DNA of 64,000 nt, from NCBI GenBank assembly GCA_950097015.1, contig CATNEN010000001.1, positions 992,001 through 1,056,000 on the forward strand. The letters are read 5' to 3'. Shown piece after piece: positions 1,373 through 58,835 of this stretch; position 1 is the stretch's first letter; every line of letters starts with the position of its first letter. The notes below the pieces were generated by a model. The model was not told the origin of the DNA, searched no databases, and worked only from the letters and a program-made list of their open reading frames with translations. The DNA is from Macrostomum hystrix (Eukaryota > Animalia > Platyhelminthes). A program made the translations under genes and the position numbers.

Positions 1373-1395
1373 CTAGCTGCAGCACTCCAATTATA

Positions 1396-1968: not shown

Positions 1969-1971
1969 TTT

Positions 1972-3250
1972 ATGCTGATGTTCCTGAACCTGCGCCAACC
2001 AGAAGATGGTTACACTGTTTACTGCGGACTGCATGCCCTTTTGATGGAATCTGCGGAAGCTTCGGCCTACCTGCATCCTACAATGTGTAGAATGACAGTG
2101 TCTGGTGTACGCAGTGCGTCAAGTGCAATTAAGCTAGTTACCAGTACGGACGAGTTTCCAGCTCTTTTCCGCGTTTCTACTCAAGAGTGCAGCTTGCTGA
2201 CCAAGGCCTTTTGCTGGGTTGCTGCTCATGAGACGTCATCTACTGAGCCTTTGCTAGATAGTGGCTTCATGTTCGAACACTTTCGTGTCAGACAAGAGCT
2301 CAGCGATTACTTTAAGGTGACTCAGATGAAACGCGTAATAGCAACAGAGGTGCTAGCTGGTTGCCAAAACTGTCGCTCTACTGCCGCTGCCGCCGCCGCC
2401 GCTGCTGATGATGCTGCAACAGCCGACTATGCGAGGACGACCTTGCCTACTCAGCTGGAGGTATGCAAAATATTATAATACATGACATTTTTTAGCACAC
2501 GTACGAGTATTGATGATTGAATTTTTGCTGTTGTTTTAATTTAAATAATTATTACTTTTGGACAATTAATTAATTAATTGTATGCGAACCTACCTAACAA
2601 CACAACAGGTCTCTGCTGCTGCTGATGTTGCTGCTTCCGCTGCTACTGCTGTTCAAGTACTTGATGCCGCCGTCGCTCATGTTCCCCGGCTGATCGCCGC
2701 CGCCACCAACGAGTGCCCAACTGTAAAGGCTGTGTGCAGCGCGTTGCAATTGCCAACTGGTGTCGTCTATCTATACGGCCCGTCTGGCGTTGGGAAGACC
2801 CACTCTGTGCAAAGCCATCTCGGTTCTACGAAAGTGCTGAATATCCAGGTGCAGAAGCGGTCTAACACGTTTATGTTTGACAAGCTCTGCGAGACTATAC
2901 ACACTGCCATGTTTATTGACGAGCTACGCCCGCAACTGTTTGATGACACATCTGAAGTCATGTGCACACTACTTCGTTTGGTCAATGGAGACACTTTTGA
3001 AGTCAATGCTAAATACAAGGCTATTCGACACGTCTCTTGGCTCAATCGACTGTTAGTGCTTGCTGGGCATGCTCCGGTCAGTGCGTATTCGATGGACTTT
3101 CAGCGCCGATTAGAACCGACACCTGATGGGCACAAGCGTCCGGTAGTTGCCATCTTCATTGGTCATTCCCTCAGTACCGACTACCAATGCGATGGACAAT
3201 GCCACCCAATACGCAATGTGTTTGGCGATCACCCGGACCGGCGAGTATGA
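1972..3250 (+). pseudogene. 5'-truncated Rep-A (exons 1972-2460 and 2609-3250), SF3 helicase part intact
   Basis: Near-identical to the 3' part of 37476-40191; GPSGVGKT Walker A, FIDE Walker B; GTATGC...CCTAAC...CAG intron. Confidence 0.85.
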
Positions 3251-8114: not shown

Positions 8115-8146
<32 letters not shown>

Positions 8147-11743: not shown

Positions 11744-11786
<43 letters not shown>

Positions 11787-15250: not shown

Positions 15251-15663
15251 CAGATACGTATTCTCAGACAAAGTGACTTGTACTTTTTTACCATCGACAA
15301 ATTTAGTATATTTCTGCTAATTGTCAATAATCACGAATGATTTTTTTCGTGAAAATACAATATATACTGTGTATCTGCGGCTTTTAAGAAAACGAGAATA
15401 GTTTAATCTTAGTTTAATCAGATGATAATCAAATGATTTCATTTGTAAATTAATTTATTTACTAACGAAATAATCACAGTGTTGACAATCATTAGCATCT
15501 TAACAATATAAAAGAGAGCAACAAACAGAACATATGAGATTCTCGGTTGTAAAGGGACGGGTATTAGTGGGGGTATCACAATTGACACAATTGATAATAG
15601 TTTGGCAAATCAGACAATCAGCACATAAAAAGTCAGGTGACACGACTGGGACAATCTGAGCAT

Positions 15664-17520: not shown

Positions 17521-17702
17521 TTCTGTTTGACATGAATGTTATAAATATTTGTTGATTATTTTACTATATTTCTTTATATGTAAATTTAAAAATATAAAGG
17601 CATGTACAACATATTTTCCTCGCTCGCACTCAGTCTCTCTATTGAAATTGCAATAGTGGCAATTCAGCCCGGCTGTGTAGTCTATGGTTTTTTATGTAGC
17701 GA

Positions 17703-18007
17703 TTCTTATGCAGCAAAAGAGCCCGGCCGAGTCCCCTATGCTTTCTTATGCAGCAAAAGAGCCCGGCCGAGTCCCCTATGCTTTCTTATGCAGCAAAAGA
17801 GCCCGGCCGAGTCCCCTATATGCTTTCTTATGCAGCAAAAGAGCCCGACTCAATCCTTAATGCTTTCTTATGCAGCAAAAGAGCCCGACTCAATCCTTAA
17901 TGCTTTCTTATGCAGCAAAAGAGCCCGACTCAATCCTTAATGCTTTCTTATGCAGCAAAAGAGCCCGACTCAATCCTTAATGCTTTCTTATGCAGCAAAA
18001 GAGCCCG
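17703..18007. repeat. 40-bp tandem repeat, 8 cores, two subtypes
   Basis: TTCTTATGCAGCAAAAGAGCCCG followed by GCCGAGTCCCCTA (x3) or ACTCAATCCTTAA (x4). Confidence 0.9.
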
Positions 18008-18383: not shown

Positions 18384-18803
18384 ATGAATGCTCATCCTGT
18401 GGCGCTGTTCGGCTCGCCGGCCATCGTGGCACTCCTGGCCAGATGCGACATCGCCTGCCTGGCCCCGTTCCTGGCGCACCGAGGACGACTGGAGCAGCTG
18501 ACCTGCCTGCAGCGCCACTGCCCGAATGCTGAGCTGAATGCCACCCAGCTACACACCTTGCTGAAGAGCCTCCTGGACTGGCTGCTACAACACCAGACAG
18601 CTGCGGGCTACGAGACTATCCTGGAGGTGACCTGCCTAACAGAGAACGAGGCTTTCGACTTGGCCGAGCTGCTAGGCCTGCTGGAGGACACCTGTTCGGA
18701 GCTGCAGCACATTCTACACGGGCTGGACTACTGGCGCGGCGTGCAGCAAAGGGCAAGACTGCGAGAGTTGTTCCGGAGTCGCGAATATCGAATGGAGCAG
18801 TAG
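18384..18803 (+). CDS. ORF C family homolog, lineage B (139 aa)
   Basis: Aligns by eye along its length with the 6480-6860 protein. Confidence 0.75.
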   Translation: MNAHPVALFGSPAIVALLARCDIACLAPFLAHRGRLEQLTCLQRHCPNAELNATQLHTLLKSLLDWLLQHQTAAGYETILEVTCLTENEAFDLAELLGLLEDTCSELQHILHGLDYWRGVQQRARLRELFRSREYRMEQ

Positions 18804-18957: not shown

Positions 18958-19095
18958 AGTACAGTTCGTGGTGCGCGCACAATCCCTAAGAAATATATAT
19001 ACAAGACGATTCGATTAGAGCTGCTTATCTACCTAAGAATAGCAGGCAAGTCCTTATATATTTTTAAGTAATGTGCGCGCACTATGAACTGTACT
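18958..19095. repeat. Inverted-repeat site B1 (putative protein-binding/origin site)
   Basis: GTACAGTTCGTGGTGCGCGCACAATCCCTAAGAAATATATA ... TATATATTTTTAAGTAATGTGCGCGCACTATGAACTGTAC. Confidence 0.9.
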
Positions 19096-19190
19096 TCTAG
19101 CTAAAAGTACACAATCAACTTAACCGGGATCCGAATTAACCTAATTAAGCACCTATTAATAGAATCTGAGTCGATCAGTTTAAAACTATA

Positions 19191-19228
19191 AGATCAATAT
19201 GCGCGCACATGTGCGCGCATATTGATCT
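19191..19228. repeat. Perfect 38-bp palindrome 1
   Basis: AGATCAATATGCGCGCACATGTGCGCGCATATTGATCT. Confidence 0.95.
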
Positions 19229-19447
19229 ACTAGAAGTAGTAGTAACACTGGTACTATCTGCTGCTCATCCTAAATAGCCTGCTCCTCCTCCTTGGGACGT
19301 ACTTGGGACTCTATTATTAATAGCGAATCCCACCCTGTTGCACCCAGTTGAAGTTGAGTACCTGGGACTGCGTTGGCTTTCTGCAGCCTGCTCATTTTCA
19401 TACATCCAAATTTGAACGCGCCTATAATTAACCTGCGGAAGCACAGA

Positions 19448-22240
19448 ATGTCGTTCAACTTTTCAACCGGCTGCGACAGCGACGATGAGCGAATTGCGGC
19501 CGCGCTGGACGAGTTTGAGAGAGTTGCCCAAGATAGTAACTCCGCCGGGCCGGTAGCGTCATCAACTCGCCAGCCACCATCACAGCGAAAAAGAAAGAGC
19601 GCTCCCTCTCAACGTCGGATTGTCAATGCAGCAGCCGCAGAATCTACGCCAGGCCCAAAGCGTATATATACTTTCACCCCAGTGCAGACAGCAGCGGTGG
19701 CTAACATCAGCAGCGACGCCGACGACTTCAGCCTGCTGCCATTGAGCGGTGTCATGCGCCTAAACACTGGAGAGCAGCAGCCTGCCAGTGACCAGATGTC
19801 CACAGGCAATCAGCAGCCACCGCCTGCCAGTATATCGGCCGTCTACGCGCCCATCTCCCACGCGATGGCAGCCTCAGCCTCGACTGCGCCAAAAGGGAGC
19901 ATGCTGGCTTGGCTCGGAGATCAGCACCGGAGTGCCAAGAAGGCCACCAGCAGATGGTCATCGCCGGCAGCGATCAGGCACGTCAGGCGACATGCTCCTG
20001 CCAACTGCGGCGATGGCGACGGGGCGGCGTCTGATGCGCCCGACATGTCCACGGCAGCCCTACAGCCTCGCAGCCCCGTCGTCATCGAGATTGAGGACGT
20101 CGACGACGAGCGCGCCGATAACGGCAGGCCGACAGCGGCAACTCGCACAAAGGCGGAGCCATCGGAGCCTAACGAGCAGGAGGCGGCGATGGATAGCGAC
20201 GACCGCGATGCTCTGCAGGCACTGCTGGACTACGAGGCGTCCACCGTTGCGCTGTCAGTCGCTGCAGATCCCCCACCGTCGGGCGCTGATGCGGAAATGG
20301 AGGAGGCCGCCAGCACGGTGCCGAAACCGCCTCAAGTCGCGGCCGACCAACAACAGCAGCCAGGGAGGCGGAGATTCCGTTTCCAGCGGCTCGAAACGAC
20401 TGCTCCCGCTGTTGCTGCTGCTGCCGACTGCTCCATTGTGGGCGCCATGGTGCCAGACTCGCAGCCCGATGGCCGACGATTAGCAGTCGCCAAGACCACA
20501 CCGTCTCAGCGTCCGGAAGATGAGACGACGGCCTACGTGGTGTCGCCTGGCACAGCGGCATTCGCAGCAGCCGTGGTGGCCGCTATGAATGAGGCCAGCC
20601 AGTCCGTCCCTGTCGGCGAGGAGTGGTGGCGCATATTAACACCACAGCCGCTGCAGCAACAAGAGCAGGTGCAGCTCGAGCGTCCTCCCTCGCTGGTGCC
20701 CTTCAGCTACAGTCCGCCGGCGTCTGCGGCACAGCTTATTCACTTCCTCCAGCAACAGCAGGGGGACAGCGAGGCGAGCGGGAGCGGGGTCGGCGGCGCC
20801 AGAGGACAACGAGGCGGCCGAGGGGTGCGACGGCTGGGCCAAAATCCGCTGCTTAATGCGGCAGCAGCACAGCAGCAGTTCACTGTGACGCGCTCAGTCA
20901 GCCGGCCGCTCGCAATGACCGGTGCTGCTCCTGCGGAGCGACTGCCCGAGGACAGCGGCATTCTGACCGGGCGCCGCTATTTGCACGTCTTCCACATCGA
21001 CAAGGTGCGCTTCGTCGGTGAGTCACTTGCTTTGTTCATAAGCTCTGAATCATATAACCAGCTGCTGGCATCCACTGTTTCCATGCTGCCTACATAAACA
21101 GGTCGTGCCAAAGTATATCTGGGCGAGGCTCTGGAGGCACACTGTGTCGAGCTCGTCCTGGCGTCCAGCCCGGGCCTCTGCGTCGGCATGGATGAGTTCT
21201 GCGACCGGCGGCTAGTCGCTGACCCGCTCTCCGTCGACGAGATGGAGCAACAGCAGCAGCAGCAGCAGCACAGCGAGTATCGGCCACACCGCACTCTGTC
21301 CGGCTTCGTGCGCCTGGAGACCAACGCGGCCGGCTGGCATTTGTACGAGCTGCTGTTCAGCCTGCTGCCTAGCCGAGACGAGGGACGCTGCTTTGTGGTG
21401 CCCGACCGGACCACCCTGACGCTGTGCGGCGTCCGCTCGCCAGACAGTGTGCTGCGGAGCCTGACGCAGCACGACGGCTACCCGCTGCTGATCGGGATCG
21501 GCGCCACGCAGTGCAGCATGCTGGTGCAAGCGACTCGGTGGGCGCTGTCCTACCCGCTGACTGCCAACCTGCCCGACCAGACTGACGGCTTCTTGTTGGC
21601 CCACCAGCAGATGCGCGCCACGTTGCTGGGGGTCTTTAGAGACGTGCAGCGCCAGCGCCGGATTCGCAGGGAGCAGCTCGCCGGCTGTTCCGCATGTTCC
21701 ACCGAGGCTGCCGACATTAGGAACCTGTGCCCGCTCCGAGAGGCCGTCTGCACAGCCCTTCGCCACCAGTCGGGCGTTGTGTACCTTTACGGGCCGTCGG
21801 GAGTCGGCAAGACCACCGCCGTCGAGCGCCACCTGGGCCAGGAGCGCGTCTTCTGTCCGGACATCAAGCGCTTCGGTGGCAATGACTTCATGTTCGACGG
21901 CCTGGACACCGCGCGCCACTCCGTCATCTTTCTGGACGAGGTGCGGCCGCACATGTTCGAGGGCGGCGACCTGGAGACCACGCTGTTGCGCCTGCTGAAC
22001 GGCAACAGCTTCCTGGTCAATGCGAAGCACCAGGCGCACGTCTACCTGGACTGGGGCCAACGGCTGGTGATCATGGCCGGCCACGCCTCACCTGACGACT
22101 ACCCGGCTGACGTGCAGCGGCGCCTGCGCAACGAGGGCAACACGTGCGTCGAGGTCGACCACGACATCGAGGCCTGCCAGGGGGGGTGCCGCCAGCAGCC
22201 AATGTTCGGAGCCGCCGCCGCCAACGCCCAGGTTGAATGA
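19448..22240 (+). CDS. Rep-B: disordered N-terminus, degenerate HUH-like domain, SF3 helicase (exons 19448-21017, 21102-22240; ~902 aa)
   Basis: GTGAGT...AAACAG intron joins two ORFs in frame; GPSGVGKT, IFLDE, LLRLLNG..F.VNAK, QRRL; aligns with Rep-A across the splice. Confidence 0.8.
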
Positions 22241-23719: not shown

Positions 23720-23836
23720 GTACAGTCTGTAGTGCGCGCACATTCCCTAAAAAATATATAAGGCATGTCAGCTCTAATTTTAGAACGACGATCCTTATAT
23801 ATTTTTTAAGTATTGTACGCGCACTATGAACTGTAC
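23720..23836. repeat. Inverted-repeat site B2
   Basis: Arms homologous to site B1, different spacer. Confidence 0.9.
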
Positions 23837-24039: not shown

Positions 24040-24077
24040 AGCGTATAAAGCGCGCACATGTGCGCGCTTTATACGCT
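24040..24077. repeat. Perfect 38-bp palindrome 2
   Basis: AGCGTATAAAGCGCGCACATGTGCGCGCTTTATACGCT. Confidence 0.95.
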
Positions 24078-24265: not shown

Positions 24266-27152
24266 TCAATCAAAATTATGCTCCGCCACTGAGTGCAGCC
24301 GCCGTCGCTTTCCGGCCACCGGTCTACCGTGCAGGACTGCGTCGGCTCGTTGGGTGCTCGCCGCCACCTCCCCACTTCCACCAGCCAGGCTGCTGATGAG
24401 TCCCTGGGTCGGCGGCCTAACTATTGGTCGCATCTCTGCGTCACCTGATGGCACCACAAACCGGCGGACAATATCGCGGCTGCGAATTACTGTGCCCATC
24501 TCGGTGGCCATCTGGGCATTGTGCCCATAATTGTACCGGATGACAGCTGCAGATGTGCCGTGCGCTCTGGCGAACATATCCAGCTGCTCCGGCTCCATCA
24601 TGAGCACTACGGCACAGAGGGTGCGACGCCAGTGCGTGGCCACATAGTGCCGACCCAGTACTCGCTGCCCGCCTGCGCTGATCATGCGGCTCATTGCCGA
24701 CTGGCTGTACACACCGCCGAACACATCAATGAAGACGGTCGGCGACTCCGGTTGCTCGATGCCGCGAGCAGCAAGCGACGGCACGATATATTCGTCGTGC
24801 AGGCGCAGCAAGGCCTCGCAGAATATATCCGGCAGCACCATCCTGGCTGGGTCGCCGGAGTGTCCGACCTTGTGCGGCACTTCACGCAGCGGCAGGACGA
24901 GATGCGAGTGCCCAGCCAGATCGGCAGCGGACGGCCCGCTCCCCCCATCTGCACTTTGCGTGTGTTGGCGGAACAGCTGTTTTTGGTCGGCCGACGCGTT
25001 TCGCCGAACCGAACGGTCGACCAGGTGTCGCCGTCTCAAGTATATCCACGGCAGAAGTCGCAGTGCCTGCTCGACGCTGCAGTAGAAAAGCATCTCCTGC
25101 ACTATCCGCCGCAGACATACCATCCGGCGACTGAAGGCGCCATCATCTGCTTCGCCGTTGTCTTTAGTGTCATCAGCGATGCCATCAGCGACCACACCTG
25201 CTGCCTGCATGCCCCATTCGCCGTCGACTGGCAGTGAAGACCAGCTGTGTCTTTGGAGCATGATGAAAAAGCGGTCTCGACGGGCGAACACGGCATCAAC
25301 CTCGTCCACGTTGACGTAGGTGTTCATAAATGCCACCTGCCGCTCATTGTGGCCAAGCTTGTAGACGGCCTGCATAGTATAAATGTGGTTGCGTTTACTT
25401 CTAGTAGATAGCAGCACGAAACCAAATAGAACTAACTGTCATTAATGCAGCTGCTGTGCAGCTATAGCCTACCTGCTGTATGGCTCGGACATTGCCGAAC
25501 TCGCCACGAGCCTGCTGCACCACGCTGCTAAGGCGGGCGATGAGAGCCTGCTCAGCCGCCAGCGGGTTGTTGGCCTTCTGCGCCAACTGCATTCTCCAGC
25601 AGACGCCACTGCCGACAGAGTCGACGTCCTCAATAGCAGGGCGCTCGGTGTCAGGCGAGGGTGAGTCGATGCTGCAGAACAGCTCGGCTTCGCGCAAGCC
25701 AACGGCGGCCATGATGGCATTGGCGCCTCGCAGGCCCCTCACGCGTAGCCAGCCCTCCTTGCAGCGGCAGATGCTGACAAGCTCCTGGCACTTGCGCGCA
25801 GCAGTCGACTGGGCCAGCTGCATGGCGTCACCGACTGTTTCAGCGCTGAAGCAGTCCTGCACCCTGTCCGGCTGAAGCAGCAGGTCTGCAAGCGATATGC
25901 CCGCTCGCTGCCAGGTGCGTAGAAGCGTCGAGCTCACGGACCTGCTGATGTCGCGCCAACGCTGCTGGTGGCACAAGTTGGCCGCAATCCTGGCCCGCGA
26001 TGGGTCCCTCCACCATAGCTCCCGCAGGCGTTCCACCGTTGCGGAGATGCTGGGCCGGTCACCCAACGGCTGCAGCAGCTCTGGTGGCACGGGCTTCGCA
26101 GGTGGCGACGTGCGAAAGTGTCGACAGCGCGGACCGCGACGCTGTTGCTGCTGCTTCTGATCGGCTGTCGACGCTTCCTGCTGCAGTTCTGCTCCGAAGA
26201 TGGACTTTTGAAGCCGGTCGAATTCGGCACTGGCCAGTTTTATCTTCAACGCAGCCCACCTTGCTGCAGCTGCTCGACGCTGCCTCGGCGGAGTAGCTGC
26301 CAGCTTCACTAGCGGCCTCTGTGCAGCCGACACCACAGCCGATGACGTGCTGGGACGATTAAGCGCCGACTTAGTGGCCTGCACCGCCAACTGCAGACAG
26401 GCAGCCGAAGAGGAAGACTCTGCTGCCACCGTATGGACCGTCGACAGAGTCCGCATTCTGATGCTGGTTCCGGGCAGTAGCTCCTGCAAGCCGACATCGT
26501 CATCTCCATCGTCAGCGTCCTCCTGTGAGGACATTAGCAGCAGCGGCGCAGTCGGGTCAAATAGGCGTCGCCGGACGGCTGGACGGCTGGCTGACGACAG
26601 CCGAGCACTGGCCGCTGACTGTCGACCGTAAACGGACGGCGCGGCGATGCTGTAGAGCTCGGCCAACAGAGACCCAGCCTCGTATTCAGCTGGTTCTGCC
26701 TCTGAAGGCTGCTGCGGAGGCGGTGGTGGCATCTGCTGCGGAGGCGGTGGTGGCATCTGCTGCGGAGGCGGTGGTGGCATCTGCTGCGGAGGCGGTGGCT
26801 GCTGGTGTTCCACAGCAACGGTAGCAACAACAGCTGGCACTGCTGGACAACTGTGCTGCCTTGCTGTCCTACGCAGCACCTTGCCGCAGGCTGGGCACGC
26901 ATGTACATGCTCAGTGTTGGCTGAGCTGCGCGTGTGGGTGCTGCACGTCAGGCAGAGCCAGACCATCTGGGCACGCTGCTTGGCTGACGCCGCTGCCCAA
27001 GATGCCTCGGACGGCCGCACCTTGACTGGGGCATCATCGAGTCGGAATTGGCGCACAGCCTCCTCCGCGTGCCTCCTCAGGAAGTGGCGCTTCGGATGCG
27101 TCTGCGGTCTGCCGTCGCCACAGAAGATGCAGCACGACTCGTTGTCTGTCAT
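24266..27152 (-). CDS. YR-B: zinc-finger plus tyrosine recombinase (exons 27152-25473, 25369-24266; ~927 aa)
   Basis: In-frame GTAGGC...TGCAG intron; candidate catalytic set ALR, HK, THWRR (HxxR), AHGTSAAVIRYNY; N-terminal CIFC..HFLRRH / CPAC; homologous to YR-A. Confidence 0.75.
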
Positions 27153-27415
27153 AGCTATTGTTATTACAAATTGATGCAGTGCCATATAGGTGTATGAACT
27201 GAATTCAGTATACATGCTCAATCAACACATGCTATGTACAGTCCGTTGTGCGTGCATCTAAATAAATATATATATGCCCCTATATCCCATTATGGAATAC
27301 ACTATTTTAAGTGTTGTGCGCGCACATTGTCCCGTACTGTTGTCATCGCTGCTGCATTTATATTCGATTGAGTGCTGCGTTGAGCACATAAATCACTTAT
27401 TTTTATGTTGTACCT

Positions 27416-33497: not shown

Positions 33498-34733
33498 TCA
33501 ATTGCCGCACAGACATTGTCGCGTCTTGATCAATCGGCCGTGTCTTGACACTGTCGTAGTCAATATATTGTGTGTGCATATACAATACGAGCGTCTAGAT
33601 GCATGCAAAGCATCAGTCGCAGGTATAGTAGATTGCGATGACTGCACATCACTGATTGACATTGCGACATCGTCGTCAAGGTCGGCGGTCAGAACCAATT
33701 CTGCTGCGGCATCGGCATCTCCTTGCGGCACTGTCACATCAGATAGCTGTTCATCAGAATCGTTGTTGACATCAGCAATGATGATCTCCATTGCGACATC
33801 AAACATGTCATCGATGTGACTTGCTTCGGAATGGGCAGCGAAATCCGATCCAGCAGCAGCAGCAACACAATCCGTATTGGTAGACAGAAATTGCATAGCG
33901 GCAGGTTGCATCAAGTCGAGCAGAATCTGCGCCATTTCAATGTCATCACCGTGACCGGATGATGTACCAATACACACTGACTGCGTGCTGACATTGGCTT
34001 CGATTGAAACATCGGTCACACCGTTTTGTGCACTGACACCAACTGTCGCTGTTGTTACTCTTGGCGGACAGACAGGAATAAAAACAGGTAGCGGCACCGG
34101 AACGAAATACGGCACCTCGACAGTTGGAATCGGCAACATAGGCATCGCTGGTGATCCGATTGGCTCAATTTGCAAAATTGGCATTGATGGCGATGGTACT
34201 GGCGAGTGATCCGATTGGATTGTTTCTGCTGCTGCTTCAATCGCATTGTGATTAAGCGGAGTAGATGTACAAATTGGATGCCGTACTGATCCAATTGACA
34301 CGCTGTCCGCTTGGCTCACATGTTCAGCAGGCTCGTCAGTACTTGTTGCATAGATGATGCCTGATTCAGCTGCGCTATCTTCTATGATGATAGTTTCTGC
34401 TGGCTGCTCTGCTGCTGACTGCTCTGCTGATGGCTGCTCTGCTGCTGGCTGCTCTGCTGCTGGCTGCTCTGCTACTGGCTGCTCTGCTACTGGCTGCTCT
34501 GCTGCTGGCTGCTCTGCTGCTGGCAGTCGACGGGCAATGTAGCGCTCGTGCATATAGTCGACAATCTCGCCGACCACAGCTGGTAGTGGATCCAGTTGTT
34601 CAAGCTGGACCACTTCGCCCATTGCCGCTGCTCCCGCCACTGCCACTGGCTGAGCTGGTTGGCCACCGACGCGACGCTGCGGATTCCGCTTACATCTATA
34701 TAGATGATGCAACATGTTGGACGTTATTTTGTT
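33498..34733 (-). pseudogene. ZF-A copy truncated at its 5' end by the left end of the complete unit
   Basis: Identity to 46802-48349 stops at ...GTTATTTTGTT, followed by CCTAAAATG. Confidence 0.85.
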
Positions 34734-35691: not shown

Positions 35692-36284
35692 AGAGTTTAT
35701 GGACTTAGAGAATTTACAATCTGTAAATTCTCGACCGTCCCAAGGCTTAAATAGTGTGGTGAGATTGGGGCGGGATAGAGGGAGCCAGTTAGTATATACT
35801 CTAAAGAAAGGTGCGCGTTGTATATTTTCGCTGGAGGCAATATGATCGACGGAGATTATATCTAGATCGGGCTTGATGACGACTAGTTACTATAATAGAT
35901 GACCGAAAATGCATGGTGTTTCTATTTTTAGCCTAAGGCGCACCTTTCTTAAGAGTATATACTGACTTGCGTGCCCCATAGACTTCAATAGGCTGCCATT
36001 TAAATACACACGAGCCAGCTTGTATATATATACTCTTAAGAAAGGTGCGCCGTAGGCTAAAAATAGAATCGAATCGCCCGGGGTTTAGCCAGCCCGGCTA
36101 TATACTAGCCCCCATATGCCGACGACGACGACGAAGTCAAGTTGCGAAAAAACAGCTCGCGCACCTTTCTTTAGAGTATATATATAATACCTGCATTTAC
36201 TCCACCAGCCACACCAACTAAGCTCTGGGGACGGTCGAAAATTTTATCACTGACATGATAAAATTCTCTAAGTCCGTAAACTCT
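35692..36284. repeat. Large nested imperfect palindrome, complete (593 bp)
   Basis: Outer arms AGAGTTTATGGACTTAGAGAATTT / AAATTCTCTAAGTCCGTAAACTCT; four inner ~24-bp motifs in alternating orientation. Confidence 0.9.
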
Positions 36285-37475: not shown

Positions 37476-40191
37476 ATGTCAGCATTTCGTGGCCGTGGAA
37501 AGAAGGCTCGTGTGGATGCCAGCATTGCTACACCGGATGCTAATGGTCTACGCCAGACTATGATCGTGGATTACTTTAGATCTCAGCAGTCAACCGATCG
37601 TCCTACTGGCGCAGCATCTAGACCGAGTGTGCAAGCATCATCGGCATCATTTACAGCAATGGCAGGAACGGCTGGTCGGGCATCGGCTGCCTTCACTGTT
37701 CCCCGCCTTGCAGTAATACAGCAGCAGCAGCAGTCGAAACAGCAGCAGCAGCAGCAGCAGCCGAAGCAGCAGCAGCCGAAGCAGACTGTCCCATCGAGTG
37801 CAATTCGGAAGCGTCGATATGCCCGATCGACTCTACGCAAGCGGACGCGTACAGTTGTCGATTTGGATGCTTCGTCTAGCAATTCATCGTCGTCTGATGC
37901 TGAAGACACTGGCGTTGGATCTCTAGTAGCCATGCGACAGCCTCTGGTTATTGTTGCCCAACCAATTTGTGGCGCCGGCGACCATGCTGATCGCATAGAG
38001 TCCACGCCTAAAGTGCTATCATCTGAAGATGACTCAGCGGACGACTTGCTAGCAGACGACGTACAGCTGGAGATTGTGGACGAGTGGACGAGCAATACAG
38101 ACAATGTAGAGTCTAATACTGCCCCTGTTTTGACGGCCTCTAATAGTTCAGCCTTGTCATCGCAGCTAGTCGATGATAAGTACAAAACAGAGGTGGCAGA
38201 ATTATTGCGCGTTAATGGCGAGTCGACTATTCCTAAAAATAGTGCCGCACTTGGTGCCTGTCCGACTTCGCCAGATTATGCGCCTCGCTCTACACCGGCA
38301 ATGTCTGTCATCGAGAATGGGACAACATCCGATGCTGATGAACCAGTTCGCGCTGTATTCTCTCCAGCGTATGTCGACGCTTCTCAACCAAAAGCGCAAC
38401 AGTCGGGACGACTGCAGCAATCGCAGCAGCAGCAGCAGCATCAACAGCGAGAGCAACAACCGCAGCAACAGCCGCAGCAGCAGCAGTGGCGGCAGCCGCT
38501 GCGGCAGCAGATACAAGGGCGTGAACGGCAGCAGCAAGAAGTTGGTGGCGTGGCATTTGCTCCGATAGCCGATGAATATGCGTTGTGTCGTTCGACATCA
38601 CCACTTCTACGGCTATGTCCTCGAGCTCCAATTACCGACTACGCCTCTTTAACAGCAGAGGGCAGGTCGGTTCTTATGACTAGAAGGACGCTACATCTTA
38701 TAGAGATTGCATTCATCTCGAGCGATGTGGAAAAATTCAAGGCGTTTCTAGAAGATGAATTGGTAGCTCCATGTGCACAGTTTGCCATCGGCGCAACATC
38801 ATGTATTCAGGTTGACATGCTGACCAGCGAAGAAATCCGAGCGCGTCGTCAGCAGAAATACAACATGTCAATCCGTGAATGTTTAGGAGCTCCGAATCAT
38901 CCCAATGGTTTGCTGATGTTCCTGAACCTGCGCCAACCAGAAGATGGTTACACTGTTTACTGCGGACTGCATGCCCTTTTGATGGAATCTGCGGAAGCTT
39001 CGGCCTACCTGCATCCTACAATGAGTAGAATGACAGTGTCTGGTGTACGCAGTGCGTCAAGTGCAATTAAGCTAGTTACCAGTACGGACGAGTTTCCAGC
39101 TCTTTTCCGCGTTTCTACTCAAGAGTGCAGCTTGCTGACCAAGGCCTTTTGCTGGGTTGCTGCTCATGAGACGTCATCTACTGAGCCTTTGTTAGACAGT
39201 GGCTTCATGTTCGAACACTTTCGTGTCAGACAAGAGCTCAGCGATTACTTTAAGGTGACTCAGATGAAACGCGTAATAGCAACAGAGGTGCTAGCTGGTT
39301 GCCAAAACTGTCGCCCTACTGCCGCTGCCGCCGCCGCCGCTGCTGATGATGCTGCAACAGCCGACTATGCGAGGACGACCTTGCCTACTCAGCTGGAGGT
39401 ATGCAAAATATTATAATACATGACATTTTTAAGCACACGTACGAGTATTGATCATTGAATTTTTGCTGTTGTTTTAATTCAAATAATTATTACTTTTGGA
39501 CAATTAATTAATTAATTGTATGCGAACCTACCTAACAACACAACAGGTCTCTGCTGCTGCTGCTGATGTTGCTGCTTCCGCTGCTACTGCTGTTCAAGTA
39601 TTTGATGCCGCCGTCGCTCATGTTCCCCGGTTGATCGCCGCCGCCACCAACGTGTGCCCAACTGTAAAGGCTGTGTGCAGCGCGTTGCAATTGCCAACTG
39701 GTGTCGTCTATCTATACGGCCCGTCTGGCGTTGGGAAGACCCACTCTGTGCAAAGCCATCTCGGTTCTACGAAAGTGCTGAATATCCAGGTGCAGAAGCG
39801 GTCTAACACGTTTATGTTTGACAAGCTCTGCGAGACTATACACACTGCCATGTTTATTGACGAGCTACGCCCGCAACTGTTTGATGACACATCTGAAGTC
39901 ATGTGCACACTACTTCGTTTGGTCAATGGAGACACTTTTGAAGTCAATGCTAAATACAAGGCTATTCGACACGTCTCTTGGCTCAATCGACTGTTAGTGC
40001 TTGCTGGGCATGCTCCGGTCAGTGCGTATTCGATGGACTTTCAGCGCCGATTAGAACCGACACCTGATGGGCACAAGCGTCCGGTAGTTGCCATCTTCAT
40101 TGGTCATTCCCTCAGTGCCGACTACCAATGCGATGGACAATGCCACCCAATACGCAATGTGTTTGGCGATCACCCGGACCGGCGAGTATGA
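37476..40191 (+). CDS. Rep-A: PIP box, Q-rich disordered N-terminus, degenerate HUH-like domain, SF3 helicase (exons 37476-39398, 39547-40191; ~855 aa)
   Basis: In-frame phase-0 intron with CCTAAC branch point; GPSGVGKT, MFIDE, LLRLVNG..FEVNAKYK, QRRL. Confidence 0.8.
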
Positions 40192-42496: not shown

Positions 42497-43268
42497 TCAA
42501 ACTTGTGCCTCCTCAATTGCAATCGCTACTGCTGCTGACGCTTCCGCCTCTTCAGCTGCGGCATACAATAGGCAGTCGTCAGCTGGGTCAAATGTACAGC
42601 TACTGGCTGTCATCGCTGCTGCTGACGCCTCTGCCTCTTCAGCTGCGGCATACAATAGGCAGTCGTCAGCTGGGTCAAATAAACAGCTACTGGCTGCCAT
42701 CGCTGCCGCTGCTGCTGACGCCTCCGCCTCTTCAGCTGCGGCATACAAAAGCTCGTCATCAGCTGGGTCAAATAAGCAGCTACTGGCTGCCATCGCTGCC
42801 GCTGCTGCTGACGCCTCTGCCTCTTCAGCTGCGGCATACAATAGGCAGTCGTCAGCTGGGTCAAATAAGCAGCTACTGGCTGCCATCGCTGCCGCTGCTG
42901 CTGACGCCTCCGCCTCTTCTGCTGCGGCATACAAAAGCTCGTCATCAGCTGGGTCAAATAAGCAGCTACTGGCTGCCATCGCTGCCGCTGCTGCTGACGC
43001 CTCTGCCTCTTCAGCTGCGGCATATAAAAGCTCGTCGTCAGCTGAGTCTAAGCAATTGGCTGCCATCGCCGCTTCGACCTCTTCAGCTACGGCGTATAAC
43101 AAATGGTCGTCTGCCAGGCCGAATACAAAACTGTATGTTGAATTGTATGTTTCATCATACCCGTAGTCATCATAGCCTGGCTCTTCATTCAGCTCAACGT
43201 CATCGTCGTGACAGTTGGATTTTTCCGCATCGTTTAGAGTTGGCCCTGATGATGATGTTGATGTAGGC
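42497..43268 (-). CDS. Acidic 31-aa-repeat protein, longer allele
   Basis: Same ORF as 4622-5275 with more repeats and a different final segment; frame preserved. Confidence 0.6.
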
Positions 43269-43504
43269 ATGGCGAGACAATGGGGGCAGTATTTAAATGT
43301 TGAACTTGTTTTATTTACTTCATTAATTGTCCAAAGTTTCAACTGCATTGATTACATATTCCCAATCACATAAGATTATCAGCAAGCTTGTTACCATAGA
43401 CTAGCAATAGGGTTTTTAGTTGGTTACTTTACTAAGGTAAGTGGCGTAACTTATTTACACATTTTAGATTCTTAATTATTGTTTCAAATAAAAAAACCTA
43501 CAAC

Positions 43505-44473: not shown

Positions 44474-44854
44474 TCATTGTTCGATGTACCAGTAGCGAAC
44501 TCCATGTATGATGAGCTGGAGTTCAGCTTGGGCTTCCTCTAAAAGCTCTAGCACTTCGATGATGTCTTGTGCTTCATCGTCTCTTACACCAGTCACGGAC
44601 AAGACAGCCTGATAGTCTTCTGCTGACCGGTGCTGTTGCAGCCATTGTTGAGTGCGCCGTAATAATAAACATAACTCATTAGCGCTATACTCAGCATTTG
44701 GAACACCGCGTTGCAAACTAGGTAGCTGCTCGAAGCACCCTCGATGCGCTATGAACCGGCCAATGCAATCTATGCGACAGCTGAGAAAGAGTTGAAATAC
44801 GCGCGGCTGAAGATACATTTGTACTAACTGCATCTGATCGGCAATTAACGACAT
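44474..44854 (-). CDS. ORF C family (126 aa)
   Basis: See 6480-6860. Confidence 0.75.
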   Translation of the reverse strand: MSLIADQMQLVQMYLQPRVFQLFLSCRIDCIGRFIAHRGCFEQLPSLQRGVPNAEYSANELCLLLRRTQQWLQQHRSAEDYQAVLSVTGVRDDEAQDIIEVLELLEEAQAELQLIIHGVRYWYIEQ

Positions 44855-46801: not shown

Positions 46802-48349
46802 TCAATTGCCGCACAGACATTGTCGCGTCTTGATCAATCGGCCGTGTCTTGACACTGTCGTAGTCAATATATTGTGTGTGCATATACAATACGAGCGTCT
46901 AGATGCATGCAAAGCATCAGTCGCAGGTATAGTCGATTGCGATGACTGCACATCACTTATTGACATTGCAACATCGTCGTCAAGGTCGGCGGTCAGAACC
47001 AATTCTGCTGCGGCATCGGCATCTCCTTGCGGCACTGTCACATCAGATAACTGTTCATCCGAATCGTTGTTGACATCAGCAATGATGATCTCCATTGCGA
47101 CATCAAACATATCATCGATGTGACTTGCTTCGGAATGGGCAGCGAAATCCGATCGAGCAGCAGCAGCAACAACACAATCCGTATTGGTAGACGGAACTTG
47201 CATAGCGACAGGTTGCATCAAGTCGAGCAGAATCTGCGCCATTTCAATGTCGTCATCGTGACCGGATTGTGTGCTGACGCTGTTTTGTGCACTGACACCA
47301 ACTGTCGCTGTTGTTACTTTTGGCGCACAGACAGGAATAAAAACAGGTAGCGGCACCGGAACGAAATACGGCACCTCGACAGTTGGAACCGGCAACATAG
47401 GCATCGCTGGTGATCCGATTGGCTCGACTTGCAACATTGGCATTGATGGCGATGGTACTGACGAGTGATCCGATTGGATTGTTTCTGCTGCTGCTTCAAT
47501 CGCATTGTGATTAAGCGGAGTAGATGTACAAATTGGATGCCGTACTGATCCAATTGACACGCTGTCCGCTTGGCTCACATGTTCAGCAGGCTCGTCATAT
47601 CTTGTTGCATAGATGGTGCCCGATTCATCTTCCATGATGATAGTTTCTGCTGCTGGCTGCTCTGCTGCTGGATGCTCTGCTACGGGCTGCTCTGCTACTG
47701 GCTGCTCTGCTGCTGGCTGCTCTGCTGCTGGCTGCTCTGCTGCTGGCTGCTCTGCTGCTGGATGCTCTGCTACGGGCTGCTCTGCTACTGGCTGCTCTGC
47801 TGCTGGCTGCTCTGCTGCTGGCTGCTCTGCTGCTGGCTGCTCTGCTGCTGGCTGCTCTGCTGCTGGCTGCTCTGCTGCTGGCAGTCGACGGGCAATGTAG
47901 CGCTCGTGCATATAGTCGACAATCTCGCCGACCACAGCTGGTAGTGGATCCAGTTGTTCAAGCTGGACCACTTCGCCCATTGCCGCTACTCCCGCCACTG
48001 CCACTGGCTGAGCTGGTTGGCCACCGACGCGACGCTGCGGATTCCGCTTACATCTATATAGATGATGCAACATGTTGGACGTTATTTTGTTGCAATGCGG
48101 ACACGCTAGCACACGTCCACCGGCAGCGACATCCACACCAGCCCGCTGTAGTTGCAGCATCTTCCAGACGGCACTTCCACGCTCCTTAACCGACGCGAAT
48201 AGCGATGGCCTTTGACCAACAGGTAGGACTGTCCAGTCAAATTCGGCATGGACAGCTTTATGCGCCTCTATAAAATGTCTTCGCATCATATTGGCGCGGA
48301 TTTGCTGGCCGCAGAAATGGCAGAAGCGGAGTCCGTTGTTGTCTTCCAT
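46802..48349 (-). CDS. ZF-A: zinc-finger protein paralogous to the recombinase N-terminus (515 aa)
   Basis: CxxC-x11-HxxxxH and CPHC motifs shared with YR-A/YR-B; EQPAA repeats; PYFVPVPLPVFIPV; SRHGR tail. Confidence 0.75.
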   Translation of the reverse strand: MEDNNGLRFCHFCGQQIRANMMRRHFIEAHKAVHAEFDWTVLPVGQRPSLFASVKERGSAVWKMLQLQRAGVDVAAGGRVLACPHCNKITSNMLHHLYRCKRNPQRRVGGQPAQPVAVAGVAAMGEVVQLEQLDPLPAVVGEIVDYMHERYIARRLPAAEQPAAEQPAAEQPAAEQPAAEQPAAEQPVAEQPVAEHPAAEQPAAEQPAAEQPAAEQPVAEQPVAEHPAAEQPAAETIIMEDESGTIYATRYDEPAEHVSQADSVSIGSVRHPICTSTPLNHNAIEAAAETIQSDHSSVPSPSMPMLQVEPIGSPAMPMLPVPTVEVPYFVPVPLPVFIPVCAPKVTTATVGVSAQNSVSTQSGHDDDIEMAQILLDLMQPVAMQVPSTNTDCVVAAAARSDFAAHSEASHIDDMFDVAMEIIIADVNNDSDEQLSDVTVPQGDADAAAELVLTADLDDDVAMSISDVQSSQSTIPATDALHASRRSYCICTHNILTTTVSRHGRLIKTRQCLCGN

Positions 48350-48549
48350 TGCAGCTTAAATATAGTCGTTCGCTGGCTAGCCTGCTGAATAATCGACAGA
48401 GTGTTCGTTGTGGCTGAATTTTAATTATCGATTTGCGTGCGCGCGCGCATATATTTACCTTGCACTGCTCATATCCTGTACAGAGCAGCAGTCAGACACA
48501 TAGACATAGACAGGCATCGTCAACTGGGTCTAAGCTATTTCCATATATA

Positions 48550-49490
48550 GTATTTTCGCGAAAATACCGATATGCTCTATAAACAAAGGTAAGGGCAGTA
48601 TTTTTGCAAAAGTTCTTGAAGTAGTGTGTGTGGCTACATATTATGGTATTTTCGCGAAAATACTGCTATGCTATTAAACAAAGGTAGTTGACGGTATTTT
48701 TGCAAAAGTTCTTAAAGTAGTGTGCATGGCTACATCTTAAGGTATTTTCGCGAAAAGACTGCTATCCTATTAAACGCAGGTAGTAAAGGTAGTTCGCGAA
48801 AATACTGCTATGCTATTAAACAAAGGTAGTTGGCGGTATTTTTGCAAAAGTTATTAATGTAGGTTATATGCGTGGCTATATCTTATGGTATTTTCGCGAA
48901 AATACTGTTATGCTATTAAACAAAGGTAGTTGGCGGTATTTTTGCAAAAGTTCTTAAAGTAGTGTGCATGGCTACATCTTAAGGTATTTTCGCGAAAAGA
49001 CTGCTATCCTATTAAACGCAGGTAGTAAAGGTAGTTTGCGGTATTTTTGCAAAAGTTATTAAAGTAGGTAGTGTGCGTGGCTACATCTTAAGGTATTTTC
49101 GCGAAAAGACTGCTATGCTATTAAACAAAGGTAGTTGGCGGTATTTTTGCAAAAGTTATTAAAGTAGTGTGCATGGCTTTATCTTAAGGTATTTTCGCGA
49201 AAAGACTGCTATGCTATTAAACAAAGGTAGTTGGCGGTATTTTTGCAAAAGTTATTAAAGTAGTGTGCATGGCTACATCTTAAGGTATTTTCGCGAAAAG
49301 ACTGCTATGCTATTAAACAAAGGTAGTTGGCGGTATTTTTGCAAAAGTTCTTAAAGTAATGTGAATGGCTACATATTATGGTATTTTCGCGAAAATACTG
49401 CTATGCTATTAAACAAAGGTAGTTGGCGGTATTTTTGCAAAAGTTCTTAAAGTAGTGTGCATGGTTACATATTATGGTATTTTCGCGAAT
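48550..49490. repeat. Second ~97-100-bp array, about 10 units
   Basis: Same unit and orientation as 40578-42055. Confidence 0.9.
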
Positions 49491-49896: not shown

Positions 49897-52800
49897 TCAG
49901 ATGTCCAGTCTAGTTCTCGAACTGATCAGGCGCCCAGATCGCGTCCTGTATTCCGTTCGACGAACCATGAGTAGCTCAGAATCCGAGCTGGTCTCATTGT
50001 CATTGCTGACGTGCTGTTGTTCACCATCATCACCTTCTTCGTCGATATCGTCGTGAACGTTGCCTTGTCCAGCCGATGCTCCAAACATCGGCGGTTGACT
50101 AAGGCTGCGTCGTCTAGACGATGTAGACGAAATAGGCGATGGTGTTGCTGAATCGATGGCCGGCTTTGTCGACTCGGTGTTGTCCGTTGTTGAACATCTA
50201 GGACTAACCGTAGCGGGTCGCATTGTCGACATTCGAGGTCGCTTCTTGTCAGTGGCCTTGCAAATGGACGATCGTCGAGTGCGTCGCTTGCGTGTGCGTT
50301 GACTATGTGGCATCACAATGTCATCAGCAGGTAGAGGAGATGCAGCCGATGAATTGGTTGCGTCCAGATCAACGCTACAGGCGGCAGAGCGACGACGCTT
50401 CGTGTCGTTTTCGGCTGTTGGATGTCGTTGATGTCGACGATCAAGTGGCCGATTGTGACAGAATGTCTCGAAGCATCCTCTGACGTCGTCGGCGACCATC
50501 AGATTGGCCTGCTGTTTGGCCAGGCGTCCATACGCATTCACGACACAGTTGCGCGATGTGTCGTACAGAGGCACCAGCTGGTCTAGCTTGTCGGGATGCG
50601 CGTGCACATAGGCCGACAGTACATTTCGACGACCATCGCCCATGCGATAGGGCCGATCGATGACCAACTCGGCGCCCTGCTTGACAAGCGTGCTGAAACT
50701 TGTCGAGTCACGCTGCTTGCCACGATGCGTAGGAAACAGCAGACATTTGCCTGGCCTGACATGGATGTTGCACTCGGCGAAGTATGGCAATAGAAAGTTG
50801 TCTATCCATTGCAGTAGACATTCGCCGACTTTGCGTGGCGCAGTCCAGCTTGCACCTTTACCACGACCGCCCTTTTTGTGTGCCACTTCGGTAGGCGGCA
50901 GGACTGTGACAATGGTGGAGGACGTTGATACGCCGCTATTGAGTGCAGCATCCAAATAGCAACGCCGGATCGCGACCCAAGGACGTAGTCGATTGGCATG
51001 GACAATTGCTGCACAGAAGAAGGCCAGTTCACGCGTGATCGGCATAATAAATGTATTCCATTTGCCGACGACGTTGGCCATTCGACGTGCACATTGTCCA
51101 ATGCGACCCCAGTAGCCCTTCACGGGTAGATGAGACCACTGATGTTTGGCGACCATATCAATCAGGCAGTCTAGCCGGTTGTGAATGATGCGCCATTCGT
51201 CAGCGGTCAGGAACTTATCCGTGTAGGACAGCTGGCGTTCGTCATCGCGCAGGTGATAGATATTCTCTTGCCGCTGACGAATCAATCCAATGCAAGCCTG
51301 TACATGTTAAAGGGTTATGAAAGAGAAAGTACATGCAGTAGCTTCTACAATTGTTCGTGATATATCAACTAACATAGTATACAATATGCGACACAACAAC
51401 ACTGCTCACCATGATTGATTCGATGCGGCTAGTCAACAGACCAGATACTGCAGTCTGATGATAGAGAATACCATCTTTGCGCGGGTCAGGACAGGCAGGC
51501 AATTCTGACGCGGCCTTGACAATGTCGGCATGCACGTTGGCAAACAATCCATCTGGTGGCGAGGTCAATTGGAACGCGTTCATAACACTAGGAGCACCGA
51601 AGTCGTTGTTGGCTGCTAGAAACTTCTTCGCGCCGCTCAATATGTTATGAAGCTCGTTCATTCGCTGTCCAACAGTCGATGGTTTCCAGATATGGCGCTT
51701 CACCATCTCGTCCAAATCGAATTGGATGCGCGCTGGATTGATGAACCACATCTCGACTGTGACATTGATTGCGTGTAGGAGACGACTAGTTGTAGCATGA
51801 TAGTTCCGCTGGATTGCTTTCCTACGGCTAACATGCGATGCGTTCTCTTCTACACAGCAATGACCCTTGAACCAGATGTCGCCGACATTGTCTAGTTGCT
51901 TGTACATGTGTTCAGATGCAACGTGGTAGTCTGGGCCGTCGAAAACAACAAGCCGAGACTTCTTGTGCCTCCGTTGCAATACAAGCTGCTCTTTGGCCGA
52001 TCGCTCGTCGTCACTGACAGAAGCATCAGTATTTTCCACGTCAGATTTAGAGGTCTGAGTCTCTGCTTGTCGCTGACTGACAGCATTGGTGACTCCGACC
52101 GGAACATAGTCTGACGTATACTGGAGGATTGCTTCTGTCAGATTGACCAGATTCTGCAAGCCAGTACACATGCTATTAACGCGAGGATGCTCAGCGTTGT
52201 GGGCTTTCTGCAGAATCTCGTTTAGGCCGGCCGCATTCAGACGCAGTCCATTGATATATTCTGTTCGGACGAAAATGGGGTGAAAATAAAATTATGAATA
52301 CTCAGTAACTCAGTTTCCTCGAAATAATAAGTAATAGTTTATAGCACTTACCGATCATTGCCATTTCATGTTTGGCTTGGATTAAGACAGGTACGTCGCT
52401 ATAATTGCTTTGCAGTCGATCCAAGTCATTGCTGACAATCTCGGCCATGTATGAAGATTGTACTTTGGATGGACCCGGTTGCGCATGCGGGGACGTAGTT
52501 TGACGAACACCAGATGTCAAGTCACATAAACGTTTAGTTGACTGTTGCGTGATCGTCTGTTTGTTTGCAGAAGTACTCGCATACAGCTCACCTACGTCTA
52601 CTACGGCATACTGTTCGTTGTCATCCGATGAAACACTGCCGTTATCGGATACCACCGCTATGTCTTGAGCAGCCGGTAGACCCTTACACGGGCGTGCAAT
52701 GTGCCTTTTCAGATGACGCACATATTTGCCACAGTGCGGACATGGCGAAAGGACATTATCGACTCCCGCTCTTTGCAACCGGACAATCTTCCATATATTC

Positions 52801-52967
52801 ATGGCCTTGACTTCATAGGACGCAGATTCAGCTGGTCGCTTGCTTAATGGTACGCAATCCCAATCAAAAGACTCGACAAAGTCCTTGTGGTTCCGGATGA
52901 AATGCCGTCGCATATTAGAACGTAGAATCGTCATTTGACATAGGAAACAATTAGTTTGTGCGTCCAT
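49897..52967 (-). CDS. YR-A: zinc-finger plus tyrosine recombinase (exons 52967-52352, 52260-51410, 51297-49897; ~955 aa)
   Basis: Two GT-AG introns join three ORFs in frame; candidate catalytic set NRLR, HKK, LLFPTHRG, GDGRR, YDTSRNCVVNAY. Confidence 0.75.
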
Positions 52968-58174: not shown

Positions 58175-58835
58175 GCTCAGTTGCTCAGTTGTTCCATTGC
58201 TCAGTTGTTCCATTGCTCAGTTGTTCCATTGCTCAGTTGTTCCATTGCTCAGTTGTTCCATTGCTCAGTTGTTCCATTGCTCAGTTGTTCCATTGCTCAG
58301 TTGTTCCATTGCTCAGTTGTTCCATTGCTCAGTTGTTCCATTGCTCAGTTGTTCCATTGCTCAGTTGTTCCATTGCTCAGTTGTTCCATTGCTCAGTTGT
58401 TCCATTGCTCAGTTGTTCCATTGCTCAGTTGTTCCATTGCTCAGTTGTTCCATTGCTCAGTTGTTCCATTGCTCAGTTGTTCCATTGCTCAGTTGTTCCA
58501 TTGCTCAGTTGTTCCATTGCTCAGTTGTTCCATTGCTCAGTTGTTCCATTGCTCAGTTGTTCCATTGCTCAGTTGTTCCATTGCTCAGTTGTTCCATTGC
58601 TCAGTTGTTCCATTGCTCAGTTGTTCCATTGCTCAGCTGTTCCATTGCTCAGTTGTTCCATTGCTCAGTTGTTCCATTGCTCAGTTGTTCCATTGCTCAG
58701 TTGTTCCATTGCTCAGTTGTTCCATTGCTCAGTTGTTCCATTGCTCAGTTGTTCCATTGCTCAGTTGTTCCATTGCTCAGTTGTTCCATTGCTCAGTTGT
58801 TCCATTGCTCAGTTGTTCCATTGCTCAGTTGTTCC
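58175..58835. repeat. 16-bp minisatellite (GCTCAGTTGTTCCATT)n, about 41 copies
   Basis: Period 16, almost invariant. Confidence 0.95.

Follow-up and report, generated by a model that had tools for sequence, protein, structure and literature searches.

A Nuclease-Dead HUH Domain Joined to an SF3-Type Helicase in Elements With a Likely Tyrosine Recombinase From Macrostomum hystrix

Two Rep Genes and Their Coding Structure

The sequence analyzed here is a stretch of 64,000 nucleotides from the flatworm Macrostomum hystrix (contig CATNEN010000001.1, positions 992,001 to 1,056,000; hereafter the window), eukaryotic and repeat-rich in character. It contains two divergent paralogous genes of the same design, RepA and RepB, each of which joins an N-terminal domain homologous to the HUH nuclease of rolling-circle Reps to a helicase of the superfamily 3 (SF3) type. 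The catalytic residues of the nuclease are gone in both proteins, and their loss is shared by a whole lineage of relatives. RepA and RepB belong to two element families, element A and element B, in each of which the Rep gene faces a recombinase-like gene on the minus strand and is accompanied by a small gene common to both (Table 1). An earlier, sequence-only reading of the region 38660..40191 had proposed such a dead HUH domain fused to an SF3 helicase, together with an independent shift from rolling-circle to theta-type replication of double-stranded DNA.

The region singled out by that reading is real and corresponds to the 3' part of the first open reading frame (ORF) of RepA plus the second one, but the gene itself begins at 37476, with about 397 low-complexity residues ahead. 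A frameshifted pseudogene is ruled out, as the breaks in the two genes are in-frame GT..AG introns that are skipped in some sequencing runs. The RepA intron stretch is skipped in read contigs from two of four runs, with a joint that lies a few bases off and beside a short repeat, and it is spanned in the contigs of another run; the 84-base stretch of RepB is likewise skipped in two of four runs. Splicing is the likely cause of these skips, and since the runs are not on record as RNA, intron-less DNA copies also fit. The summed exons encode 855 residues for RepA and 902 for RepB. Among the 32 read variants listed for the RepA exons, from a table in which 37 further rows were left out, five of six in the folded part are synonymous versus 12 of 26 in the low-complexity part, small numbers in both cases.

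RepA and RepB are 27% identical over 204 columns of their N-domains (E 6e-17) and 43% identical in their helicases (E 1e-42). All motif blocks quoted for them earlier are found in place. The shared cysteine linker LAGCxxC...CP is present as described but crosses the exon junction. The C-terminal H..CxGxC is present as well, but a tail of the form H..Cx2-3C also occurs in three nuclease-intact Reps introduced below (P0026, P0041, and P0036); the tail is therefore not tied to nuclease loss, and the idea that it marks the dead lineage is rejected. In the RepA HUH domain about 30 residues are inserted after the second strand, and the position of the helical bundle behind that domain suggests that it is likely an oligomerisation domain.

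Table 1. Features of the two Rep-bearing elements, in window positions
Feature	Position	Strand	Remarks
RepA gene (spliced)	37476-40191	+	ORF 37476-39416 joined to ORF 39520-40191
RepA exon 1	37476..39398	+	~397 low-complexity residues, degenerate HUH domain, helical bundle, first Cys pair
RepA intron	39399..39546	+	GT..AG, phase 0, keeps frame; from sequence and contig joint 39400 to 39554
RepA exon 2	39547..40191	+	SF3-type helicase, then His/Cys tail
RepA nuclease-dead HUH domain	38667..39098	+	motif I strand 38691, motif II strand 38907, motif III helix 39042-39098
RepA helical bundle	39099..39311	+	shared with nuclease-intact relatives; W..., D-x-F, R..L conserved; LAGCxxC at end
RepA helicase motifs	Walker A 39718, Walker B 39853, B' Lys near 39950, LAGH 40000, Arg finger 40042	+	
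RepA motif blocks	LHLIEI 38691, GLLMFL 38907, GVRSASSAIKLVTS 39042, LAGCQNC 39291, CP 39655, H..CxGxC 40105-40143		
RepB, divergent paralogue of same design	19448..22240	+	intron 21018-21101 (84 bases, GT..AG)
RepB motif blocks	LHVFHI 20981, TLSGFV 21293, GVRSPDSVLRSLTQ 21428, MAGH 22073		
Likely tyrosine recombinase, element A	49897..52967	-	three ORF blocks (predicted exons), N-terminal Cys/His finger
Likely tyrosine recombinase, element B	24266..27215	-	two ORF blocks, N-terminal Cys/His finger; Atlas 0.95
Small gene, element A	44474..44854	-	homologous to 18384-18803; 45% over 112 aa, E 1e-33
Small shared gene, element B	18384..18803	+	homologous to 44474-44854 of element A
Cys/His finger ORF	46802..48349	-	paralogue of recombinase N-terminus
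5'-truncated RepA copy	1972..3250	+	98% DNA identity; inside the partial element A copy of the next row
Second partial copy of element A	~734-17527		holds the 5'-truncated RepA copy
Nested inverted repeat upstream of RepA	35692..36284		four alternating 22-base sites; three window copies
100-base tandem array with palindrome TTTTCGCGAAAA	40697..42053		second array 48542-49489
Inverted-repeat cassette and palindrome upstream of RepB	18958..19233		cassette recurs at 23720-23836 and 27236-27341, palindrome at 24040-24077

A Degenerate HUH Domain and Its Lineage

The only named homologs of the window Reps are two proteins of Macrostomum lignano, P0001 (70% identical to RepB) and P0004. The latter is annotated as a protein with a G protein-coupled receptor (GPCR) domain, has a helicase resembling that of RepA (58% identity over 124 columns) and is probably a fused gene model. 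Word-indexed homolog searches returned 2, 0, and 1 proteins only. A profile of the window Reps and two relatives, run against 1.84 billion representatives, gave 45 matches at E <=0.001, which include full-length Reps with intact motifs and fragments with degenerate ones; P0013 (a repeat protein) and P0035 (AAA proteasome-like) were judged spurious and dropped. The 17 full-length Reps aligned out of the 45 matches are referred to here as the intact group, and four of them match the Pfam family Gemini_AL1 (best 5e-7). Searches of JGI metagenome and IMG/VR contigs and of plasmids yielded no relative of the window Reps, and searches seeded with P0037, P0026, and P0005 gave none either; a single viral contig, L001, matches P0024 in the HUH part only.

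Pfam and PHROGs gave no match for the N-domain of RepA or RepB. A hidden Markov model (HMM) of the 17 intact-group N-domains, helicase excluded, scores RepA at 33.4 bits and RepB at 32.0 bits, whereas shuffled sequences reach at most 5.1 and 3.0 bits, respectively, and none of 1000 attains the real score in either case. The matching stretch begins with the strand that precedes motif III and takes in the helical bundle. Profile comparison with hhalign gives 98.6% (E 5e-16) for the N-domain and 83.7% for the HUH core, and it places the motif II strand where the sequence-only reading had put it. The blocks which that reading had likened to rolling-circle motifs I-III thus hold up beyond chance, motifs I and II by way of the multiple alignment and the structural model.

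That model, predicted for the RepA domain from a 30-row alignment, has a predicted local distance difference test (pLDDT) score of 86.1 and the topology beta-alpha-beta-(insertion)-beta-alpha-beta-alpha, followed by the helical bundle. Compared with 48,161 solved chains, its top 16 rows (Z 9.7-7.0) are all nuclease domains of CRESS, plasmid or parvovirus Reps or origin-binding domains of large T antigen (LT) and E1, and the first unrelated row appears at Z 6.9. A second structural comparison gave Z 10.0 for the Rep of tomato yellow leaf curl virus (TYLCV; root-mean-square deviation (rmsd) 2.7 over 101 aligned residues), 9.9 for that of porcine circovirus 2 (PCV2), 9.8 for the SV40 origin-binding domain (OBD; rmsd 2.5, 101 residues) and 8.4 for the E1 DNA-binding domain (DBD). 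The named top matches in BFVD are CRESS Reps. In the Foldseek check proposed earlier, the PDB yielded no match at E 0.001, with unrelated ferredoxin-like folds ranking high. An Atlas search with the N-domain led to unrelated bacterial clusters at low recognition. The predicted fold is thus HUH-like, as the earlier reading expected, and a fold of this kind does not by itself separate active from inactive HUH relatives.

As the earlier reading stated, the two HUH histidines of motif II and the YxxK tyrosine and lysine of motif III are missing from both proteins. Two more residues are gone from RepA, the Thr of motif I and the Glu of the second strand, the latter a third metal ligand. Of the nine lost-type rows of alignment A7 none has the motif III Tyr, against 18 of the 19 other rows, and the same counts apply to the Lys. 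None of the six lost-type rows that cover motif II has both histidines. Residual histidines persist in the lost-type P0005, which keeps the second one, and in P0044, and together with P0017 these two are intermediate in motif II. The positions conserved across the lost-type rows lie around motif III and in the bundle and are V, T, D, P, W, D, F, R, and L. They include no His or Tyr of the RepA domain, so no substitute active site is seen, and catalytic residues elsewhere in the domain were not found.

With the four catalytic columns dropped, the nine lost-type rows form one side of a branch (support 99/96, bootstrap not fully settled), which makes the loss a trait of a lineage rather than the decay of one copy. 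The N-domain trees omit P0001 and P0020, and alignment A7 omits P0044. One further protein, P0039, groups with intact Reps yet has neither histidine of motif II nor the motif III Tyr; it adjoins the lost-type branch in the first N-domain tree, not in the one with the catalytic columns dropped, and is either an early intermediate or the product of another, independent loss. A six-frame scan of the window (1230 frames) found no intact HUH Rep. Membership in Cressdnaviricota, whose Reps have intact rolling-circle motifs I-III, was considered and rejected, as these motifs are not intact in RepA and RepB.

The Helicase and the Relation to Papillomavirus E1

The fusion to an SF3-type helicase is supported by the Walker A motif GxxxxGK[TS], the acidic pair of Walker B, the B' Lys and the Arg finger, all kept in both Reps, the last two being invariant in the 17 intact-group proteins. 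Motif C reads LAGH in RepA and MAGH in RepB, just as the sequence-only reading had it. Searched against solved structures, the intact-group helicase profile matches E1 best (1e-11), followed by the Rep of adeno-associated virus (AAV; 7e-11), and parvovirus NS1 also ranks above circovirus Rep (3e-5), E1, AAV Rep, and NS1 spanning 1e-11 to 3e-9. By these sequence comparisons the window Reps are homologous to characterised SF3 domains, indirectly, via the intact group of the same family.

Whether the nuclease was lost independently of papillomaviruses can be approached from both halves of the protein. Of 120 viral loci fetched by an E1 Walker A pattern, 74 have a usable frame, and L002 was confirmed as an E1 with its DNA-binding domain as a check on the set. 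Against a lost-type N-domain profile all 17 intact-group domains score 14.7-54.4 bits, and none of the 74 E1 upstream regions exceeds 9.5 bits. The helicase tree comprises 36 rows, nine of them E1; P0021, P0034, and short fragments were left out, the former two being long-branch outgroups that fell inside the ingroup of an earlier tree and gave no reliable root. Its lost-type clade has 97/97 support, with the motif region covered in three of eight clade rows, and in the best tree E1 stands elsewhere, beside the intact P0025 (80/77, weak). E1 is also absent among the best 60 PDB matches of the window-clade helicase profile.

The SF3 phylogeny thus recovers a lost-type clade apart from E1, but an approximately unbiased (AU) test does not reject a joint clade of the two (p-AU 0.36). 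The claim of an independent shift holds to the extent that the N-domain profile, scoring intact-group domains above the E1 upstream regions, makes independence from papillomavirus E1 the favoured account, and nuclease loss likely occurred within this Rep family, separately from papillomaviruses (as judged from E1 sequences). Membership in Papovaviricetes, whose combination of inactivated HUH and SF3 helicase the window Reps share, was rejected, as their origin-binding domain lacks sequence kinship to E1 (<=9.5 bits).

Recombinase, Shared Genes and Repeats

The recombinase-like products of elements A and B are homologous to each other (E 1e-17). The product of element B scores 0.95 against phage-integrase clusters in an Atlas language-model search, and R, K, RR, and Y are common to both with a spacing that fits a tyrosine recombinase, the residues being assigned from the motif order R-H-R-Y. 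From that one search and the motif spacing, both minus-strand partners are likely tyrosine recombinases. The stand-alone Cys/His finger ORF is followed by 15-base coding repeats and has further copies at 12013-13416 and 33498-34715; a fragment of the same ORF is interrupted by 41 near-identical 16-base units at 58181-58835.

Several repeats flank the Rep genes. The fold of the nested inverted repeat upstream of RepA, at z -14 relative to 20 shuffles, is a strong hairpin, and the repeat is a candidate origin or recombination site. The palindrome TTTTCGCGAAAA of the tandem arrays has 38 exact matches in the window versus 0.02 expected, and further array stretches lie at 3920-4184, 13577-13790, and 14733-15362; the arrays are candidate Rep binding sites. 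The palindrome contains an E2F-like site, and the arrays could act as S-phase enhancers besides origins. Element B has three inverted-repeat cassettes, the one upstream of RepB recurring at 23720-23836 and 27236-27341, and its palindromes at 24040-24077 and 19186-19233 are perfect or near-perfect, share an 18-base core and lack a spacer. They resemble hairpin-telomere resolution sites, and a role of the recombinase as resolvase was considered and found unsupported; the read contigs contain no strand-change joint and are uninformative on hairpin ends.

At 17703-18007 a 40-base tandem array lies where the first copy of element A stops and element B starts, and it is a possible end of element B. 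Pfam scans of 15 and 51 window ORFs, made by sequence and without folding of accessory ORFs, found no capsid family, and no replication gene besides Rep was recognised in the element. An acidic, Ala/Glu-rich ORF of 93-base repeats, for which no family was found, occurs at 42497-43348 (-) and 4622-5275 (-). The window also holds a Pif1 helicase fragment at 61002-62006 (-), with the Pfam domains PIF1 and Pif1_2B and likely Helitron-derived, and a DDE_3 transposase fragment at 62697-63359 (+).

A Possible Mode of Replication and Its Alternatives

We interpret the elements as DNA that is excised by its recombinase and replicated theta-style by an origin-binding, nuclease-dead Rep, a reading to which we assign a probability of about one half. 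Excision by the recombinase would yield a double-stranded circle, which the same enzyme would later re-integrate. Rep would attach to the palindromic repeats via its dead HUH module, form a ring and, in the manner of LT and E1, open the origin so that host primase and polymerases can act there. The HUH site would then no longer be needed for nicking and joining, since the host would prime and the recombinase would circularise and integrate; the recombinase partner, which the earlier reading did not mention, offers a possible reason why these activities could be lost. Origin binding, helicase activity, and theta-type replication of double-stranded DNA are what we infer beyond the homologies and linkages described above. 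More tentatively, and at somewhat less than even odds, we speculate that the elements represent an undescribed class of capsid-less, recombinase-integrating animal episomes, which would have passed, like polyoma- and papillomaviruses but independently of them, from nicking for rolling-circle replication to recognising the origin with a dead HUH domain, within the Rep family nearest E1 and with living intermediates in which the catalytic residues go step by step.

A number of results weigh against this interpretation. All 17 intact-group proteins have the Asn of motif C, and AGH stands in its place in both Reps and four relatives (one helicase fragment of the lost clade retains the Asn), so ATPase activity is uncertain and helicase activity, judged by the remaining motifs, is likely at best; direct Pfam helicase matches of the window Reps all lie below the cut-off. 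The HUH core alone scores 9.0 bits in RepA and 3.5 in RepB, with one of 1000 shuffles tying each, so that the case for motifs I and II depends on the multiple alignment and the model. A model of RepA from three sequences reached a pLDDT of only 34.9 and was uninformative, and 19 of the 30 rows behind the better model belong to the intact group, so that this model and the homology claim are not separate lines of evidence; the intact group had in turn been found with a profile of the window Reps, which is mildly circular. The joint clade with E1 that the AU test leaves standing belongs here too. The truncated copy of RepA differs from RepA by five non-synonymous and three synonymous codons. The HxxR position of the recombinase is His in element B and Asp in element A, sequence searches of Pfam, PHROGs, and the PDB gave the recombinase no match, and element ends were not found within the 64-kb window.

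An unlikely, though by no means negligible, alternative is that the nuclease-dead Rep is no initiator but a captured accessory protein of a Crypton-like recombinase transposon, with DNA-binding or weak ATPase activity, like apvRep or U94; it might aid recombination, regulate transcription or interfere with related viruses. The loss of the motif C Asn and the long, low-complexity N-terminus would suit such a role. Cryptons move by recombinase alone (PMC3212892), and captured poxvirus Reps, with a dead HUH domain and partly kept helicase motifs, are under purifying selection (PMC10193959). On the other hand, Walker A, Walker B, B' Lys, and Arg finger are kept in both paralogues at 43% identity, whereas apvReps are without a fully conserved Arg finger (PMC10193959), the whole Rep architecture persists through a deep lineage, and origin-like repeat arrays flank the gene. 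A different objection accepts the proposed mechanism and questions the independence, holding that nuclease loss is shared with E1 and that the element is a surviving sister of the E1 lineage. The AU result and the affinity of the intact-group helicase profile for E1 over circovirus (1e-11 vs 3e-5) speak for it; we consider it improbable given the weakly supported placement of E1 next to the intact P0025, the gap between E1 upstream regions and intact-group domains in the N-domain profile, the absence of E1 from the best matches of the window-clade helicase, and the residual histidines of P0005 and P0044, which suggest a stepwise loss inside the family.

Rolling-circle replication might also persist, if the nick were supplied in trans by an intact relative, in the genome or in a helper virus, with Rep acting as helicase only. 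Intact members of the family do exist, the nested inverted repeat forms a strong hairpin, and endogenised RepE1 cressviruses are reported from sea anemones (PMC11071296). We find this decidedly improbable, as the window holds no intact HUH Rep, the elements have their own recombinase, and a lost-type lineage as deep as the one found (99/96) is unlikely for short-lived defective satellites. Hardly credible, finally, is a domain that does not derive from HUH or that cuts DNA by a relocated active site: the weak core, the Foldseek result in the PDB and the unrelated bacterial clusters of Atlas are what could be said for it, but the motif III region and the following bundle align unambiguously, motif II is bridged by P0005, P0044, and P0017, and no His or Tyr is conserved across the lost-type rows. 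Should the theta-type reading prove true, the kinds of mobile DNA known from animals would grow by an element that replicates and that integrates by means of a recombinase.

Comparison With Known Systems

Dead HUH domains with non-replicative roles do exist (PMC10193959), a precedent which tempers the replicative reading: avipoxvirus apvRep and U94 of human herpesvirus 6 (HHV-6) are captured Reps in which the endonuclease motifs are inactivated and the helicase motifs kept in part (PMC10193959). The large viruses that carry them as accessory genes possess replication machinery of their own, and the window Rep differs from them in its retained Arg finger. Cryptons resemble the window elements as eukaryotic DNA elements with a tyrosine recombinase and a proposed excised circle (PMC3212892), but the latter add a Rep, further genes and repeat arrays and measure ~10-17 kb; the word 'helicase' is absent from the main text of the Crypton paper (PMC3212892). 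The planarian PEVE and PIVE and the Hydra element DENSOV_HM, compared here by description only, are flatworm and cnidarian virus-like elements with parvovirus- or E1-like helicases, some of them integrated, and their description mentions no recombinase (PMC3198968). In the literature searched, to which Repbase, the PEVE paper, and supplements did not belong, the pairing of a dead-HUH SF3 Rep with a tyrosine recombinase is not described; the genome maps of Buck et al. may matter for its novelty.

The closest active relatives are intact Reps with an E1-like helicase (P0015, P0016, P0018, P0019, P0023-P0026, and others), which have the same motif III context, bundle, and helicase family as the window Reps and, unlike these, keep HxH and YxxK. 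Their shared similarity to E1 makes it likely that the intact group corresponds to the 'RepE1' cressviruses of Buck et al. (2024; PMC11071296), whose examples carry capsid genes (PMC11071296).

An inactivated HUH domain joined to an SF3 helicase is the design of E1 and LT (PMC6668415, PMC13595969), and a 2026 taxonomy commentary describes Papovaviricetes as small DNA viruses in which the HUH was inactivated and the helicase kept (PMC13595969). The likeness extends to structure, as the RepA model superposes on the SV40 and E1 domains, whereas the element itself is integrated, multicopy and partnered with a recombinase, with no capsid recognised and no motif C Asn. We see a known design in an element class that may be undescribed. 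The driving force of the transition to an inactivated HUH has been called 'obscure' by Kazlauskas et al. (PMC6668415). In E1 and LT all sequence trace of the HUH motifs is gone; the N-domain of the window Reps is similar by sequence to intact Reps, not detectably to E1, and this dead domain still aligns with its active relatives. Because of this, and because forms with partial loss exist and a recombinase adjoins, it becomes testable how a nicking enzyme turns into an origin-binding module, and whether an alternative route of circularisation and integration frees the nuclease to decay.

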